From an uncultured bacterium (lineage in GTDB: Bacteria; Patescibacteriota; Minisyncoccia; Phycocordibacterales; PALSA-1337), in NCBI GenBank assembly GCA_903839725.1, contig CAIMDG010000002.1, positions 1,078 to 65,077 of the forward strand: a stretch of 64,000 nt of DNA, written 5' to 3'. Below the pieces are notes generated by a model. That model saw nothing but the letters and a program-made list of their open reading frames with translations, was not told the DNA's origin and did not search any database. The position numbers and the translations under genes were made by a program. Numbering within the stretch: position 1 is the stretch's first letter; each line of letters begins with the position of its first letter. This document shows, in pieces, positions 1,036 through 64,000 of this stretch.

Positions 1036-1153
1036 AGCCACAGGGGTGGCACATACTCATTTTCCTCAGAAGTTTGTAAACATTGGGGTACGCGGTGTAA
1101 TGTACATGTCTCTAAACTTCTGAGGAAAATGAGTATGTGCCACCCCTGTGGCT
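1036..1153. repeat. Palindromic element copy 1: 39-bp perfect inverted repeat (1036-1074 / 1115-1153) around a 40-nt conserved core
   Basis: The reverse complement of agccacaggggtggcacatactcattttcctcagaagtt equals aacttctgaggaaaatgagtatgtgccacccctgtggct exactly. The core is tgtaaacattggggtacgcggtgtaatgtacatgtctcta. A weaker outer inverted repeat (gtaagattacattac / gtaatgtaatcttaac) lies at about 1000-1192. Confidence 0.85.
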
Positions 1154-3234: not shown

Positions 3235-4617
3235 TCAATTCCCCGTTGTGGTAATATGCAACTTCCAGCTCTCCAAATTACCTTCAGGACCACCACTGGC
3301 CCAGTCTCTAATCCATAAAAACCATATTCCGTTCGGTGATTTTCCATTAAATATTGATAGGTCATCTACAGGATGATATGTACCCGTAACAGGACTTATC
3401 AGTGGTGAATTTTGAATATTTACTTGGGCTGTATCCGCAAGTGTAACATCAAAACCTGCAATGTTATCGAGCATTTTCAAAACATCTCCATGATCTACAC
3501 CAAACAATCGCTGTCTAAGTGATGCAGGATAAGACCATGCCCCGAATATCACCTGTTGGACCTGATCTGGACTAAATAAAATCGCTTCTAAATCTCCATT
3601 AATACCTCCGTTAATTTTAACATCAACAGTCATATTTGATACAACACCAGATAGTCCGCTGACATTTAATTGATAAACATTGTACCTCCCATTAGGAATG
3701 ATTCCGCCACTAGAACTACTGAATACCATTGGTACCGGGTCTGCAACTGTCACCGTCACACCAAGTGTTTGTGTTTGTGCTGATCCGCCATTTCCAGTGA
3801 CTGTCGCAGTAACATTATATGTACCCGCCGCACTGTATGTATGAGTGAATGTGACTGGAGTTGTAATAGTATTTTGTGTACCTGTTGTTGTATCTCCCCA
3901 ATCGATAGAATACGTGAGCGAATCAGCATTTGGGTTTGAAACAGTTACTACCCATGTACCACCAGTAACAGTGGTAAGTGTACCTGGACCAGTGAAACTG
4001 CTTATTGTGGGTGCCGTAACAAACGTTTCTCCTGGATACCCATCACCAGAATATGATGAATAATTTGCATCACCGATCGGAATAGTTATAACTGTAGGAT
4101 TGTCTAGCGGATTAAGTGACTTGAGTTCACTTACATAATCAAAAGAAGCAGTTGGGGTGATTGCTACAGTAGTATCATTAGCTCCCGGAGTTACACCTGT
4201 CGAAGGTGCAGTTACGTAGGTGTATTCAAGACCACTTGTATTGATCATGTCGACAGGGATATGAGAGATGTATCCACCATCTACGAGAGGTTTGAGGACA
4301 CCTAGACCTAAATCAGGAACACCGTTTGCATTTGTAATACCTCTACATACAAATGAAGTTGTTCCGCTGATGATTTGAGGAGTACAACCTGCTACATTTT
4401 GCGCACCTGCTGGAACACCACCATGATCATTTGCGTATAAAGCCAACGCATTACGAACCTGAAGCGCATTTGAATTTCGCACAGAATCACGACCACTTGC
4501 TTGAGCAGCTCTAACTCCCACCAAAATCACTGAGGCAAGTGAGGCGATGATCGAGATGACGACCATGATTTCGATGAGGGTGAATCCTTTATTTTTGTAA
4601 TCTATAGCATGAATCAT
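3235..4617 (-). CDS. Type IV pilin-like protein with PKD-like repeat and C-terminal proprotein-convertase P-domain-like region
   Basis: N-terminal prepilin cleavage/methylation motif KGFTLIEIMVVISIIASLA. YSIDWGDTTTG PKD-like signature. C-terminal ...GDLEAILFSPDQV...GIWFLWIRDW...NLESWKLHI resembles a P-domain. Confidence 0.8.
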   Translation of the reverse strand: MIHAIDYKNKGFTLIEIMVVISIIASLASVILVGVRAAQASGRDSVRNSNALQVRNALALYANDHGGVPAGAQNVAGCTPQIISGTTSFVCRGITNANGVPDLGLGVLKPLVDGGYISHIPVDMINTSGLEYTYVTAPSTGVTPGANDTTVAITPTASFDYVSELKSLNPLDNPTVITIPIGDANYSSYSGDGYPGETFVTAPTISSFTGPGTLTTVTGGTWVVTVSNPNADSLTYSIDWGDTTTGTQNTITTPVTFTHTYSAAGTYNVTATVTGNGGSAQTQTLGVTVTVADPVPMVFSSSSGGIIPNGRYNVYQLNVSGLSGVVSNMTVDVKINGGINGDLEAILFSPDQVQQVIFGAWSYPASLRQRLFGVDHGDVLKMLDNIAGFDVTLADTAQVNIQNSPLISPVTGTYHPVDDLSIFNGKSPNGIWFLWIRDWASGGPEGNLESWKLHITTTGN

Positions 4618-4655: not shown

Positions 4656-6170
4656 TTAACGTACACATCGAGCATATCTCAAATTATATTTATCATATGT
4701 TTCTATTTGTGGTGAACAACTAGTGGTTGAGAGCATCGGTACTCCATTTGCCCCCATAGACCACGATTTAGAACATGCCCATGCAAAACCACTTCTTCCT
4801 GAAAATTCTTCACTCGTCCAATACGGTGCAGTTTGTGTTGCTGATAACATTTTTGGTTGTACCAATGAGCCATCTTGCAGACCAGTCTGAAGCTCAGCTC
4901 GTGTAGGTAAATGCCATCCCGTCGTACCTCCACTACTTACACCAAAATTTGGGTCCGAACAAGTGCTTAAAGCATAATTCCATGAAGCAGAATTATACTG
5001 ACTAAAATCATATATAGACCACTTCGGTGCAAAGTACGCAACAACTGTTCGTGGAACACTCATGTCAACAACACACGTAGGATTGGTACCGGAAGAAGCA
5101 CAGTCACCTGCCCATCCATCAAAGAGACTAGCGTATGATGTTGATGCTGTAAGAGTAACTGATCCTGAGATTGTCGCCGAACAAGGATACTTGGATCCAA
5201 AAGAACCACTATTTTGACAATTGATACCACCGACCGAACTCGTAATAGTTCCGCCACCACCAAGTGATGAATAAGCTCCAGGACCTGGGAAACTAGGTAA
5301 ACCTGTCGTACTCACAGTAAGTAATTGTGTAACCGGCGCCGTCACAACTGTCTGCGTTGAAGCTGAAATCTGAGAATTAGACCCTGTCAAAGTCACGACA
5401 ATAGTGTAAGTACCCGCAGCTGCATATGCATGATAGGCATCAAACTTTGTACTTGATGATATAAGAAGATCACTTGTTGAATCTCCCCAATCATACGAAT
5501 ATGTCAGTGTAATCCCTGCTGGATTACGAACACTTGCAGTCCATGTTCCAGAAACACCAGACAAGATGGTAGAAGGTCCAGTAAAACCAGTGATTCCTGG
5601 TTGGATAACAATATTCGCAATTGGATATCCTCCATTTGGATACAATGCGGTGTTTTCTTCACCAATATATGTTGGAACAATCACAGGATCAGTAACCGGA
5701 TCAGCAGACTTGAACTCACTAACATAGTTGAATTCAGCTGTTGGTGTGATTGCTACAGTTGTACCGTTAGCTCCTGGGGTTACACCTGTTGTTGGTGCAG
5801 TTACGTAGGTATATTCAAGGCCATTGGTATTGATCATGTCGACAGGAATATGAGAGATGTATCCACCATCTACGAGAGGTTTGAGAACACCTGATTCCAA
5901 ATCACCTTTACATACATATGAAGTTGTTCCACCGATAGTCTGAGCATTACAACCTGCTACACCAGCACCTGATGGTACACCGCCATGGTCTGTTGCATAC
6001 AAAGCGAGTGCATTACGTACTTGCAAAGCACTTGATTGACGTGCAGAATCACGACCACTTGCTTGAGCAGCTCTGACTCCCACCAAAATCACTGAGGCAA
6101 GTGAGGCAATAATCGAGATAACAACCATAATTTCGATGAGGGTGAATCCGGTACGTAATGTGTGCTTCAT
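4656..6170 (-). CDS. Type IV pilin-like protein paralog with PKD-like repeat and C-terminal DUF1566/Lcl-like domain
   Basis: N-terminus TGFTLIEIMVVISIIASLASVILVGVRAAQASGRD is nearly identical to the neighbouring gene for about 165 aa. YSYDWGDSTS PKD-like. C-terminal WHLPTRAELQTGLQDGS...YWTSEEF is DUF1566-like. Confidence 0.8.
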   Translation of the reverse strand: MKHTLRTGFTLIEIMVVISIIASLASVILVGVRAAQASGRDSARQSSALQVRNALALYATDHGGVPSGAGVAGCNAQTIGGTTSYVCKGDLESGVLKPLVDGGYISHIPVDMINTNGLEYTYVTAPTTGVTPGANGTTVAITPTAEFNYVSEFKSADPVTDPVIVPTYIGEENTALYPNGGYPIANIVIQPGITGFTGPSTILSGVSGTWTASVRNPAGITLTYSYDWGDSTSDLLISSSTKFDAYHAYAAAGTYTIVVTLTGSNSQISASTQTVVTAPVTQLLTVSTTGLPSFPGPGAYSSLGGGGTITSSVGGINCQNSGSFGSKYPCSATISGSVTLTASTSYASLFDGWAGDCASSGTNPTCVVDMSVPRTVVAYFAPKWSIYDFSQYNSASWNYALSTCSDPNFGVSSGGTTGWHLPTRAELQTGLQDGSLVQPKMLSATQTAPYWTSEEFSGRSGFAWACSKSWSMGANGVPMLSTTSCSPQIETYDKYNLRYARCVR

Positions 6171-26206: not shown

Positions 26207-26430
26207 GTTGTTGATAAAAATTATTAAACGGACATCGTTGCCATTGAATAGTAGTTTCGCAGAACGTAAAAGGCGCTCTCAGGGACGAGAACGTTAGAGA
26301 TGCACGTTACTGCAATTGAATATTCACTGGGTAGGATTAATGATAGACCTTTCTAATCCCTCGCTGTAAGGCAGAACACAATCTGCGAAGTTAGGAGAAC
26401 CCTATCATATAGGCAGAGAAAGTCAAGTAA

Positions 26431-26554
26431 ACAAGGCGGGAGGGGTGTGCATACTCATTTTCTGCACTAGTTTAGAGACATGTACATTACACCACGTACC
26501 TCGATGTTTACAAACTTGTGCAGAAAATGAGTATGCACACCCCTCCCGCCTTGT
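26431..26554. repeat. Palindromic element copy 2: 37-bp perfect inverted repeat around the conserved core in inverted orientation
   Basis: acaaggcgggaggggtgtgcatactcattttctgcac / gtgcagaaaatgagtatgcacacccctcccgccttgt are exact reverse complements. The core tagtttagagacatgtacattacaccacgtacctcgatgtttacaaactt is the reverse complement (about 90% identity) of the copy 1 and copy 3 core. Confidence 0.85.
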
Positions 26555-26665
26555 TTGAAATGACCTGCAATTAGGTCTGCTATTACCAATATATTGACAT
26601 CATACAATTAATATGATTATATTTCATCAAACAACCGAACATTACCAACAAGAAAGGCTACTACT

Positions 26666-27154
26666 ATGGTCTGGAATAGTGCAACAATTTCACAGGCAAG
26701 TAAGACGGACGCCCGATTGATGACACACGTAACACAAGCCAGGGCCTGCATTGAAGAGTGGAATGATGATCCGAAACAGTCCGATGCTTTCCTAGATTAT
26801 CAGTGTCACTCTATCTGTATTGCTTTAGCATCAATTATTCCTGGCCTAACTGTAGTTCACGGATGCTATTGCGGCTTAAAACAAAAATGGCACAAGGGTA
26901 AATTTGTAGACCTTGCATGGACCGCCAAAGATCATTCTTGGTTAACGACCCCAAATGGCAACATCATTGATCCTCATCCCGTAGGCATCATTGCCACAGA
27001 ACCGTTGCTGGTAATCGGCCGAGGTAAAAATGTAGCCTTCGGTGCTGGTCTATACTTCAAAGGTCATATCCAGAAAAGAAAATACTGTAACAAAAAAGTT
27101 GCGCAACAAGTAAAGGTTCTCATAACATTTTTGGAGAGTCGTCGCGCGAAATAA
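26666..27154 (+). CDS. Hypothetical Cys/His-containing protein
   Basis: 162-aa ORF with CH..C...HGCYCG residues. No confident family assignment. Confidence 0.4.
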   Translation: MVWNSATISQASKTDARLMTHVTQARACIEEWNDDPKQSDAFLDYQCHSICIALASIIPGLTVVHGCYCGLKQKWHKGKFVDLAWTAKDHSWLTTPNGNIIDPHPVGIIATEPLLVIGRGKNVAFGAGLYFKGHIQKRKYCNKKVAQQVKVLITFLESRRAK

Positions 27155-29273: not shown

Positions 29274-29321
29274 ATGTGGGTGAAAGCTTATCAGAATCGA
29301 TAATAAAACGCAAGATGTAGA

Positions 29322-29437
29322 GGCACACAGGGTACATGCACTCATTTCTCGCACAAGTTTGTAAACATTGTGGTACGCGGTGTAATGTACATGTCTCTAA
29401 ACTTGTGCGAGAAATGAGTGCATGTACCCTGTGTGCC
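29322..29437. repeat. Palindromic element copy 3: 38-bp perfect inverted repeat (29322-29359 / 29400-29437) around a 40-nt core; outer imperfect inverted repeat 29303-29456
   Basis: ggcacacagggtacatgcactcatttctcgcacaagtt / aacttgtgcgagaaatgagtgcatgtaccctgtgtgcc are exact reverse complements. The core tgtaaacattgtggtacgcggtgtaatgtacatgtctcta differs from copy 1 at one base. Confidence 0.85.
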
Positions 29438-29481
29438 CTGCTACTTTGCGTTTTATATAGTTCTGATATACTTTCACCATT

Positions 29482-30171
29482 ATGAAAGTACTCATCGTAG
29501 AAGACGACGTTGCAACAGCAGAAATGGTACGCAATGGTTTGGCGTCGTATCTATATACGACTGACGTCTCATTCGACGGTGCTGATGGTTCATTCATGGC
29601 TCGTAGCTATGAATACGACGCTATTGTACTCGATCATTCCCTACCAAAGAAAAGTGGTCTCACTGTATGCAAAGATATTCGTGCGGCCGGCAAAACTACA
29701 CCGATTATTTTCTTATCAGGACTTGATGCAGTAGAAACAAAGATAGAAGCACTCGAACATGGTGCTGATGATTATATGACAAAACCGTTTTCTCTCGACG
29801 AACTTGATGCACGTCTCAAGGCTCTTGCGCGTCGTCCTATTCAAATCCAAGAACGTATTCTGCAAGTACATGACCTTACACTCGATACACAGACACATGT
29901 AGTCACACGTGGAGGAAAAACGATTCATATGACCAAAAAAGAATTTGGTTTACTTGAATATATTATGAAGCACAAAGGCATCGTACTCTCACGAACATCA
30001 ATTATTGAGCATGTATGGGCTGCCGAAAATGACCCATTCTCAAATACAGTTGAAGCTCATCTACGCAACCTTCGTAAGAAAATAAATTTTGGTAATAAGC
30101 CAGACCTCATACGCAATCTCCCTGGTAGAGGTTATATTATAGACACTCCTGAACATCTTGCGCGTCTATAA
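29482..30171 (+). CDS. OmpR-family two-component response regulator
   Basis: MKVLIVEDDVATAEM receiver N-terminus, conserved Asp in VLDHSLP, K in MTKPF. C-terminal winged-helix (LTKKEFGLLEYIMKHKG...PGRGY). Confidence 0.85.
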   Translation: MKVLIVEDDVATAEMVRNGLASYLYTTDVSFDGADGSFMARSYEYDAIVLDHSLPKKSGLTVCKDIRAAGKTTPIIFLSGLDAVETKIEALEHGADDYMTKPFSLDELDARLKALARRPIQIQERILQVHDLTLDTQTHVVTRGGKTIHMTKKEFGLLEYIMKHKGIVLSRTSIIEHVWAAENDPFSNTVEAHLRNLRKKINFGNKPDLIRNLPGRGYIIDTPEHLARL

Positions 30172-45390: not shown

Positions 45391-45422
45391 CAACAAAAAA
45401 CCACCCTCTCGAGTGGTTTTTT
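45391..45422. terminator. Hairpin terminator (sequence duplicated at 47512)
   Basis: caacaaaaaaccaccctctcgagtggtttttt. The identical 32-mer recurs at 47512-47543. Confidence 0.7.
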
Positions 45423-47511: not shown

Positions 47512-47545
47512 CAACAAAAAACCACCCTCTCGAGTGGTTTTTTGT
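47512..47545. terminator. Hairpin terminator (duplicate of 45391)
   Basis: caacaaaaaaccaccctctcgagtggttttttgt. Confidence 0.7.
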
Positions 47546-59306: not shown

Positions 59307-59428
59307 AGAACAGACGTAATATGCACGGTTTTTAAGACCCTTCGGAGCCACGAAGAGTGGCGAGAATGAGTGCGCGTTCAGCAGAACGCGACACGTGTCT
59401 TAAAAACCGTGCATATTACGTCTGTTCT
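59307..59428. repeat. 122-bp palindromic element with nested internal hairpins (candidate structured ncRNA)
   Basis: 32-bp perfect inverted repeat agaacagacgtaatatgcacggtttttaagac / gtcttaaaaaccgtgcatattacgtctgttct enclosing 58 nt with two sub-hairpins (cttcg-gagcca-cgaag and cgcgttc-agca-gaacgcg). Confidence 0.7.
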
Positions 59429-63753: not shown

Positions 63754-63783
63754 GTGATTATTATACCTTGCCACAGTTGTTTC

Positions 63784-63903
63784 GCGAAGCAGGAGGGTGT
63801 GTACTCATTTTTCTCTTATAGGTTAGAGGCCCTCACATCACTCCGCATACCACATTGTTTTTAACCTATGAGAGAAAAATGAGTACACACCCTCCTGCTT
63901 CGC
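63784..63903. repeat. Palindromic element copy 4: 42-bp inverted repeat (1 mismatch) with homologous arms but a different 36-nt core
   Basis: gcgaagcaggagggtgtgtactcatttttctcttataggtta / taacctatgagagaaaaatgagtacacaccctcctgcttcgc. Arms share the GGGTGTG.ACTCATTTTC motif with copies 1-3. Core gaggccctcacatcactccgcataccacattgtttt. Confidence 0.8.
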
Positions 63904-63923
63904 CCCTATGATATAATCAACAC

Positions 63924-64000
63924 ATGTTCAAGAAGTCACTCGATGTTCTCGCTATAGGCGACCTCGCCACCGATGCTTTTATTCGTCTCGAAAAAGCAGA
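63924..64000 (+). CDS. Partial CDS (5' end only), possibly PfkB-family carbohydrate kinase
   Basis: ATG 63924 preceded by tataat at 63912. N-terminus MFKKSLDVLAIGDLATDAFI resembles a ribokinase/PfkB N-terminal beta-strand. Truncated by the window end. Confidence 0.3.
   Translation, partial: MFKKSLDVLAIGDLATDAFIRLEKA

Follow-up and report, generated by a model that had tools for sequence, protein, structure and literature searches.

Apparent in-place reversal of the centre in a dispersed palindromic repeat family of an uncultivated freshwater bacterium

Introduction

The intergenic region upstream of rpoB in an uncultivated bacterium contains a palindromic element, copy 2, whose conserved core runs opposite to the core of two other copies (copies 1 and 3) in the same window. 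By window we mean the whole stretch of DNA analysed here, 64,000 nucleotides in length. Does the core invert between its arms, or was the whole element inserted in that orientation? If the core does invert, is the inversion programmed?

Palindromes that exist in two states are known from the ITRs of parvoviruses, in which flip and flop differ by inversion of an asymmetric interior. The attC sites of integrons keep their hairpin structure although much of the stem differs in sequence.

Template switching between the arms of an inverted repeat homogenises the arms, can extend them and reversibly inverts the spacer, and long arms are favoured (PMC8604942). The same process preserves perfect inverted repeats in Proteobacteria (PMC5941160). 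In plastid DNA, "flip-flop" of hairpin loops between stems is recurrent, with spacers of 5 and 9 nt in the plastid example (PMC6342102).

Results

An inverted-repeat search delimited copy 2 as an imperfect palindrome of 128 nt at window positions 26429–26556, where the covariance model also matched, with the conserved core on the minus strand. Its arms (left, 26429–26481; right, 26504–26556) are 53 nt each, 92% complementary and separated by a gap of 22 nt. The outer 33 nt of the arms, GGCGGGAGGGGTGTGCATACTCATTTTCTGCAC, are perfect on both strands: positions 26435–26467 are perfectly palindromic with their exact complement at 26518–26550, and the number of chance matches expected is 0. The left arm includes the family motif GGGGTG..CATACTCATTTTC. 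Between the perfect parts lies an asymmetric centre of 46 nt (26470–26515, minus strand), made up of the imperfect inner arm ends GTTTGTAAACAT and ATGTCTCTAAAC and the 22-nt loop TGGGGTACGCGGTGTAATGTAC. This centre is the only part of the element that defines an orientation, and the remainder mirrors itself. The DNA hairpin of copy 2 has folding energies of -57.1 and -56.7 kcal/mol on the two strands, with a z score of about -16.

Copies 1 and 3 have the core, GGTACGYGGTGTAATGTACATG, on the plus strand, and copy 2 has it on the minus strand. Alignment of the copy-2 centre with those of copies 1 and 3 gave identity at 21 of 46 positions directly and at 43 of 46 (93%) as the reverse complement, which confirms the reversal described in the first-pass annotation. 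The centres of copies 1 and 3 are identical at 45 of 46 positions. The covariance model gave the same result, as copy 2 scored 146.7 bits on the minus strand and 93.3 bits on the plus strand, with the reverse preference for copies 1 and 3. It had also been noted that the arms keep their polarity. This is true, but it is uninformative, as it follows automatically for any two mutually inverted arms. Because the arms are reverse complements of each other, copy 2 alone cannot tell a flipped core from a flipped whole element.

Copy 2 is one member of a dispersed family of ∼120–155-bp DNA palindromes in this uncultivated freshwater bacterium. A covariance model built from eight copies found exactly four of them in the window. 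Copy 1 (1036–1153, plus strand) has a 278-aa ORF and its terminator on one side and the typA promoter on the other; contigs L107/L108 contain a diverged orthologous copy. Copy 3 (29303–29456, plus strand) is located between rpsP, which encodes S16 (minus strand), and a gene for an OmpR-type response regulator (plus strand); its palindrome extends weakly to 29279–29478. The diverged copy 4 (63784–63903, minus strand) is located between the class-II fructose-bisphosphate aldolase gene fba (minus strand) and a gene starting at 63924 (plus strand). It scored 117.3 bits on the minus strand versus 77.1 bits on the plus strand and thus has the orientation of copy 2. Over the four copies, the model preferred one strand by 40–55 bits, the plus strand for copies 1 and 3 and the minus strand for copies 2 and 4.

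Beyond the window, one GTDB MAG has a family copy (L016, 2261–2380). Further copies were found on the related metagenome contigs L093, L094, L095 (two copies) and the L096/L099/L102/L106 group, and a diverged subfamily is represented by L107/L108 and L095 1325–1464. Scans of the GTDB genomes and IMG/VR with the exact core returned no match. A scan of the GTDB genomes with the arm motif returned 79 stretches, with L016 as the sole true member; the other stretches were rejected as chance matches or unrelated palindromes. Only 3 copies came from the JGI metagenome scan. No Rfam family matched at its gathering score, and the sub-threshold matches were all to generic miRNA hairpins with E values of at least 0.1.

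Eight copies were aligned by their centres. Hardly any variation is seen in the loop or in the inner-arm motif (C)RTACTCATTT(T), a G-rich block (GGGGTG / GGAGG) is loosely conserved, and the outer 15–25 nt of the arms are different in every copy. The core subtype is genome-specific, as seen in the window versus L096/L016. The conserved ATGAGTA in the arms was considered as the start of a small peptide and rejected; it has no upstream ribosome-binding site, and the downstream "codons" vary freely with the arms.

Although the arms vary between copies, they remain complementary within each copy. Across the 8 copies, 97% of the arm cells are paired. Both sides have changed in 28 of 50 pairs, and only 1 of 41 long-helix pairs shows variation on one side only. 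None of 500 shuffles reached the observed counts of arm compensation. In the variable part of the long helix (alignment columns 15–50), G-T mismatches occupy 4 cells and A-C mismatches also 4, so that the two are equally rare. Selection on a one-strand RNA would allow G-U pairs on the RNA strand alone. The compensated arms, the absence of a G-T bias and the equal folding of both strands therefore argue for homogenisation of the arms at the DNA level, and not for a one-strand RNA.

The same pattern is seen between orthologous copies. Copy 1 differs from its counterpart in L107 at ∼10 arm positions and copy 3 from its counterpart in L096 at ∼7, and all of these differences are mirrored in the opposite arm; in the former case a perfect 40/40 palindrome remains. 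The centre is better conserved than the arms, with 43–45 of 46 positions identical among copies 1–3 and a loop that is nearly invariant between genomes. Pure neutrality does not predict such conservation, and either a function or a factor that recognises the centre is indicated.

We compared the loci with those of related lineages. The region upstream of rpoB in L003/L004/L005 is near-identical to that of the window but lacks copy 2, and the two promoters there stand almost back to back. L096 has a short hairpin, ACAAGG-GTAGA-CCTTGT, at the copy-2 site, where the window has ACAAGG-[element]-CCTTGT. These empty sites mean that copy 2 was recently gained or lost and that its own orientation has no orthologue to be compared with. 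The orientation of copy 2 could equally date from its insertion, given the empty site in two related lineages.

At the copy-1 locus, the flanks in L107/L108 are near-identical to those of the window and the arms are orthologous, with a strongly diverged centre. We rejected a second orthologous flip at this locus (copy 1 versus L107), as the centre is too diverged (67.5 versus 63.9 bits).

The copy-3 locus was informative. The centres of the window and L096 match at 28 of 44 positions directly and at 39 of 44 when one is flipped. The centre faces the response regulator in the window and in L001, L002, L110, L111, L113, L114 and L115, and it faces S16 in four independent assemblies of the sister lineage (L096, L099, L102 and L106). 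The window lineage has a single orientation in every assembly seen. The flanks of copy 3 and its asymmetric outer arm ends (AAAGTRGCA on one side and AAGATGTRGAG on the other) align directly between the window and L096, and both copies have the locus-specific arm sequence CACACAGGG in common. Since the flanks and outer arm ends are unreversed and the centre is reversed, the exchange points would be inside the 38–39-bp perfect part of the arms. From this comparison of orthologous sequences, in-place reversal of the centre by exchange within the arms appears to happen in this family. The first-pass annotation had offered two readings, a core that is invertible between its inverted repeats or one that functions symmetrically. 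The first of these is partly borne out at the copy-3 locus, but the reasoning from copy 2 that had led to it does not hold.

Another history of the copy-3 locus has to be considered. The arm differences between the L096 lineage and copy 3 far exceed the differences in the flanking DNA, so the interior may have been converted from another copy instead of flipped. In L003 the slot between the S16 and response-regulator genes is filled by an unrelated branched palindrome of 186 nt, and L104/L105 have just a short palindrome there. With such variable occupants the site is dynamic, and independent insertion or conversion is a live alternative.

Over 2151 nt, contigs L101 and L099 differ in nothing but the first 17 nt of L101. 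This stretch reads as the reverse complement of the centre's far half and is joined to the S16-side arm, and the covariance scores were 34.2 versus 19.1 bits. This single contig end suggests the opposite centre state in an otherwise identical strain, and hence heterogeneity within the population. The perfect palindromic stretch is 38 nt, shorter than the k of 55 that we assumed from the style of the scaffold, so the junction would need real reads to support it. The end of L101 is exactly 55 nt from the outer arm boundary, which would fit a mixed population in a k=55 graph. Other contig ends, at 57, 53 and 10 nt, do not fit, and the distance was given no weight as evidence.

Copy 2 is located in an intergenic region of 459 nt (26207–26665). 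The first-pass annotation had described this region as ∼450 nt long and AT-rich; the length is right, but the AT-richness is only marginal, with a GC content of 0.399 (0.378 without the element) versus 0.411 for the whole window. It had correctly stated that rplKAJL does not precede rpoB. In this lineage rpsP-KH-trmD precede it, with or without a small divergent ORF.

Within the region, copy 2 is between back-to-back candidate promoters of rpoB (minus strand) and a 162-aa ORF (plus strand). The candidate rpoB promoter (26399–26431, minus strand) consists of TTGACT at 26426–26421, a 16-nt spacer and TAGGGT, and it abuts the left end of copy 2. TTGACT...TAGGKT is conserved in L006, L010 and L096, and TTGACT-16-TAGGGT probably acts as the rpoB promoter; a promoter scan made the alternative call TTTACT-16-TATGAT. 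The candidate promoter of the divergent 162-aa ORF (26594–26623, plus strand) is TTGACA-18-TATATT, is conserved in L003 and starts 38 nt to the right of copy 2.

The other copies have comparable positions. Copy 3 is between the extended -10 boxes of rpsP and the response-regulator gene, copy 4 is between two TATAAT-N6-ATG arrangements belonging to fba and the next gene, and copy 1 comes after a terminator and ahead of the typA promoter. Divergent intergenic regions hold 7 of the 9 independent loci with a resolved context (copies 2, 3 and 4, L016, L094, L095b and L107b), immediately upstream of the candidate promoters; the non-divergent loci are copy 1 and L095a. In the window, ∼11 of ∼60 intergenic regions are divergent. 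This bias towards divergent promoter regions may stem from a role in regulation or simply from tolerance.

In the core-forward direction, copy 2 faces rpoB, copy 1 typA, copy 3 the response regulator and copy 4 fba. No consistent gene class was found downstream of this direction among the copies. The GC skew has one sign over nearly the whole window, which puts all four copies on one replichore. As they are divided 2:2 in orientation on that replichore, orientation is independent of the direction of replication.

A sigma-70 consensus scan of the four centres, which was limited to canonical signals, found no promoter. The candidate TTGTAA-16-TGTAAT in the centre was rejected as weak: it has no A at -11, and the scan did not call it. 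With at least 40 bp between the centre and the nearest candidate -35 box, the known promoter elements would be unaltered by a flip. Among the ∼47 ORFs of the window that were scanned, none has a recombinase, transposase or Y1/HUH Pfam domain.

Discussion

We interpret the family, with a probability of roughly 0.6, as selfish or neutral palindromic repeats that undergo unprogrammed, reversible inversion of the spacer, and not as a regulated switch. The element would have only two distinguishable states, with the centre forward or reverse and the arms mirroring each other, and the state of the centre would not be fixed by the locus. Exchange inside the long perfect arms would reverse the centre in place. 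The likely route would be template switching of the DNA polymerase between the arms during replication, or recombination or conversion from arm to arm. The same process would copy one arm onto the other, such that the arms stay Watson-Crick complementary while they drift between copies, and the copying could also lengthen the arms outward. Arms that are perfect but drifting, unequal arm lengths with locus-specific outer parts and a reversed spacer together favour the template-switch reading. That template switching is the mechanism, that orientation is neutral and how the family spreads are our inferences.

It is unlikely, in our judgement, that orientation was set only at insertion and that the opposite states at the S16/response-regulator locus reflect independent insertions or copy replacement at a hot spot. 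The copy-2 site is indeed empty in two related lineages with near-identical flanks, the S16/response-regulator slot is dynamic (the branched palindrome of L003 and the short one of L104/L105), and a genome-specific core subtype would follow from intragenomic spread or from one copy converting another. However, CACACAGGG and the asymmetric outer ends, which have the same orientation in copy 3 and L096, indicate one ancestral insertion, L101 differs from L099 solely in the state of its centre, and copies 1–4 show neither the target-site duplication nor the conserved termini of a cut-and-paste insertion. Assemblers could also produce opposite states, since long identical inverted repeats may make the short unique stretch that they enclose unorientable and its orientation arbitrary. 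Contigs do break in or at the edge of elements (L095, L097, L098, L101, L103, L111, L112 and L116), and L100 has an N-gap. An artefact is nevertheless extremely unlikely: the perfect palindromic stretches of 33–39 nt are shorter than the k-mers suggested by contig names with k141, k119 and k99, shorter than the assumed k=55 of SPAdes-style scaffolds and far shorter than the reads, and independent assemblies of each lineage agree in orientation (the window and seven contigs for one; L096, L099, L102 and L106 for the other).

The remaining explanations assign the element a function. The annotation had envisaged a programmed, phase-variation-like inversion, in which the direction of a signal in the centre would decide which divergent gene is favoured, for example rpoB or the 162-aa ORF. 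The position between divergent promoters at most loci, the strong conservation of the centre and the existence of both states, with one lineage apparently polymorphic (L101, one contig end), are all compatible with such a switch. We regard it as very improbable, as the window ORFs scanned contain no invertase or recombinase, the invertible part contains no sigma-70-type promoter, the distance to the -35 boxes would leave promoters untouched by a flip, and the window lineage is in one state in all assemblies seen. To our knowledge, moreover, the 22–46 bp between the arms fall well below the length of the segments that known site-specific invertases turn, are several-fold shorter than the invertible segments of known invertons and are too short for synapsis of the known invertases. 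We give equally little credence to a structured RNA, a small RNA or the hairpin of a 5' leader, transcribed from the minus strand in copy 2 and the plus strand in copies 1 and 3, whose orientation would be that of the transcribed strand. It would account for a very stable hairpin with strong covariation and for the core-forward direction towards rpoB, typA, the response regulator and fba, but G-U is no commoner than A-C among the mismatches, changes on one side are almost absent and both strands fold equally well. Copies 2–4 are upstream of the candidate -35/-10 boxes of both neighbours and so outside the predicted transcripts, the element has no internal promoter and no Rfam match above chance, and its direction changes from the response regulator to S16 at the orthologous locus. 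Somewhat less improbable, though still doubtful, is a functional hairpin or cruciform module between divergent promoters, whose apical loop would be recognised by a protein and whose recombinase-independent flip-flop would bias the flanking genes, including rpoBC; under the same heading we place a substrate of a new hairpin-specific mobilising enzyme.

Unprogrammed inversion of the spacer agrees with published template-switch and flip-flop cases in its long perfect arms around an asymmetric spacer and in orthologues, those of copy 3, that differ by the reverse complement of the spacer. A reversed spacer within unreversed flanks (copy 3/L096) and mirrored arm differences were both found. The published cases differ in being mostly single-locus hairpins with spacers of a few nt, whereas the centre here is 22–46 nt and part of a conserved multicopy element; compared with published template-switch spacers, mostly a few nt in yeast, this is at the large end.

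REPINs and REP sequences are likewise extragenic, non-coding and present in many copies, with inverted halves around a spacer that form a long hairpin, and they are maintained by vertical descent, with gains and losses among relatives (PMC3116915, PMC3337134). In contrast to REP-RAYT systems, the 64-kb window has no RAYT or Y1 transposase, and the outer arms are not conserved between copies. Unlike REPINs, the family is found mainly between divergent promoters and in another lineage, and it has no sequence similarity to them.

MITEs such as Correia/CREE, ERIC and RUP are also intergenic hairpin repeats of 100–160 bp that occur in both orientations, often near promoters (PMC3184786). Empty and filled sites between relatives, which are typical of MITEs, were found for copy 2 (L003/L004/L005 and L096). 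However, target-site duplications are absent at copies 1–4, and the junction of the filled versus the empty site is palindromic and not duplicated. The termini of the family are variable, its arms co-vary instead of being conserved, and a cognate insertion sequence or transposase is absent from the ∼47 window ORFs. The family fits neither the MITE nor the REPIN definition.

Invertons such as fimS and hin resemble the family in that inverted repeats flank a segment of two orientations upstream of genes. They differ from it in having an invertase gene, which the window lacks, and a promoter inside, where the family has none of the sigma-70 type. The arms of the family are far longer than typical inverton repeats and variable between copies. 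Unlike attC sites and viral ITRs, the family has no integrase or cassette context and is internal to the chromosome, not at replicon ends. Its apical part is conserved and its base varies, which is the opposite of attC. We class it as an intergenic palindromic repeat with a known mutational behaviour, spacer inversion, which is unusually large in scale here and a property of the family as a whole.

The analysis documents a multicopy palindromic repeat family in an uncultivated freshwater bacterium with a small genome. It also provides a clean case from nature, in bacteria, of the in-place reversal of a 22–46-nt spacer flanked by long, concertedly evolving arms. Elements of this kind cause breaks in metagenome assemblies; they look like structured RNAs when covariation is tested and like phase-variable invertons when orientations are screened. 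Should the conservation of the centre and the bias towards divergent promoters prove functional, the family would represent a new type of promoter-proximal DNA structure element.

Other features of the window and related contigs

The lineage carries several palindrome families. A different palindrome at 59307–59428 has perfect 32-nt arms and a 58-nt interior that apparently contains two small hairpins (T-shaped). It is located in a convergent intergenic region just past a terminator, and its GAGAATGAGTG is reminiscent of the family arm motif. The branched 186-nt palindrome in the copy-3 slot of L003 (8180–8365) folds with -72 kcal/mol (z -10.5) and is enclosed by the outer arms ATAAAACGCAAGA and CTTTGCGTTTTAT, the same ones as those of copy 3 in the window. 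A second subfamily, with the same arm motif and the centre GATAACACGTACCCAG..., and a further long palindrome with unrelated arms are represented by L107 2769–2908, L095 1325–1464 and L107 1543–1670. L095 1325–1464 and L107 1543–1670 are in divergent intergenic regions, and L107 2769–2908 is between two plus-strand genes. In L104/L105, positions 1–18 upstream of the S16 gene form a perfect palindrome with the halves AGGGTGCAT and ATGCACCCT, in an intergenic region of only 124 nt. This palindrome may be the remnant of an element that has lost its centre.

The rpoB leader of ∼190 nt (window 26207–26400, minus strand) is conserved even in rather distant relatives, namely in L003 (5680–5870), L006, L007, L010 and L096 (5905–6118). 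One block, AACTTCGCAGATTGWGTTCTGCC...AGCGRRGGATTA, is invariant, and downstream of it come a terminator-like hairpin with a lineage-specific stem sequence and a T-run. A comparison of this leader with Rfam returned no match. The leader resembles a still unnamed attenuator or cis-regulatory RNA upstream of rpoBC.

The 162-aa ORF (window 26666–27154, plus strand) has no Pfam domain and only five detectable homologues, and it is absent from the L096 lineage. It is 58% identical to its L003 orthologue even though the adjacent intergenic DNA is near-identical, so this protein evolves fast.

In both neighbours of copy 4, a TATAAT (63763–63768, minus strand; 63912–63917, plus strand) precedes the ATG by 6 nt, and this spacing suggests leaderless mRNAs for the two flanking genes. 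The response-regulator gene is similar, with its -10 box at 29467–29472 and its ATG at 29482. A consensus-like promoter, TTGCCA-17-TAAATT, stands on the right-hand side of the L016 copy, and the next ∼500 nt have no ORF of at least 80 aa; this stretch (L016 2438–2960) may be a structured RNA gene.

Two 32-nt terminator-like sequences, CAACAAAAAACCACCCTCTCGAGTGGTTTTTT (45391–45422 and 47512–47543), are 100% identical and mark the ends of two paralogous periplasmic-binding-protein gene units. Their surroundings include seven Peripla_BP_6 paralogues and three TrmB-like regulators. The source freshwater-lake bacterium has many type-IV-pilin-like genes. Two of the pilin-like genes in the window (4108–4587 and 5697–6149), with an N-terminal methylation motif and PKD domains, are adjacent and share DNA blocks of 84–85% identity, which indicates a recent tandem duplication.
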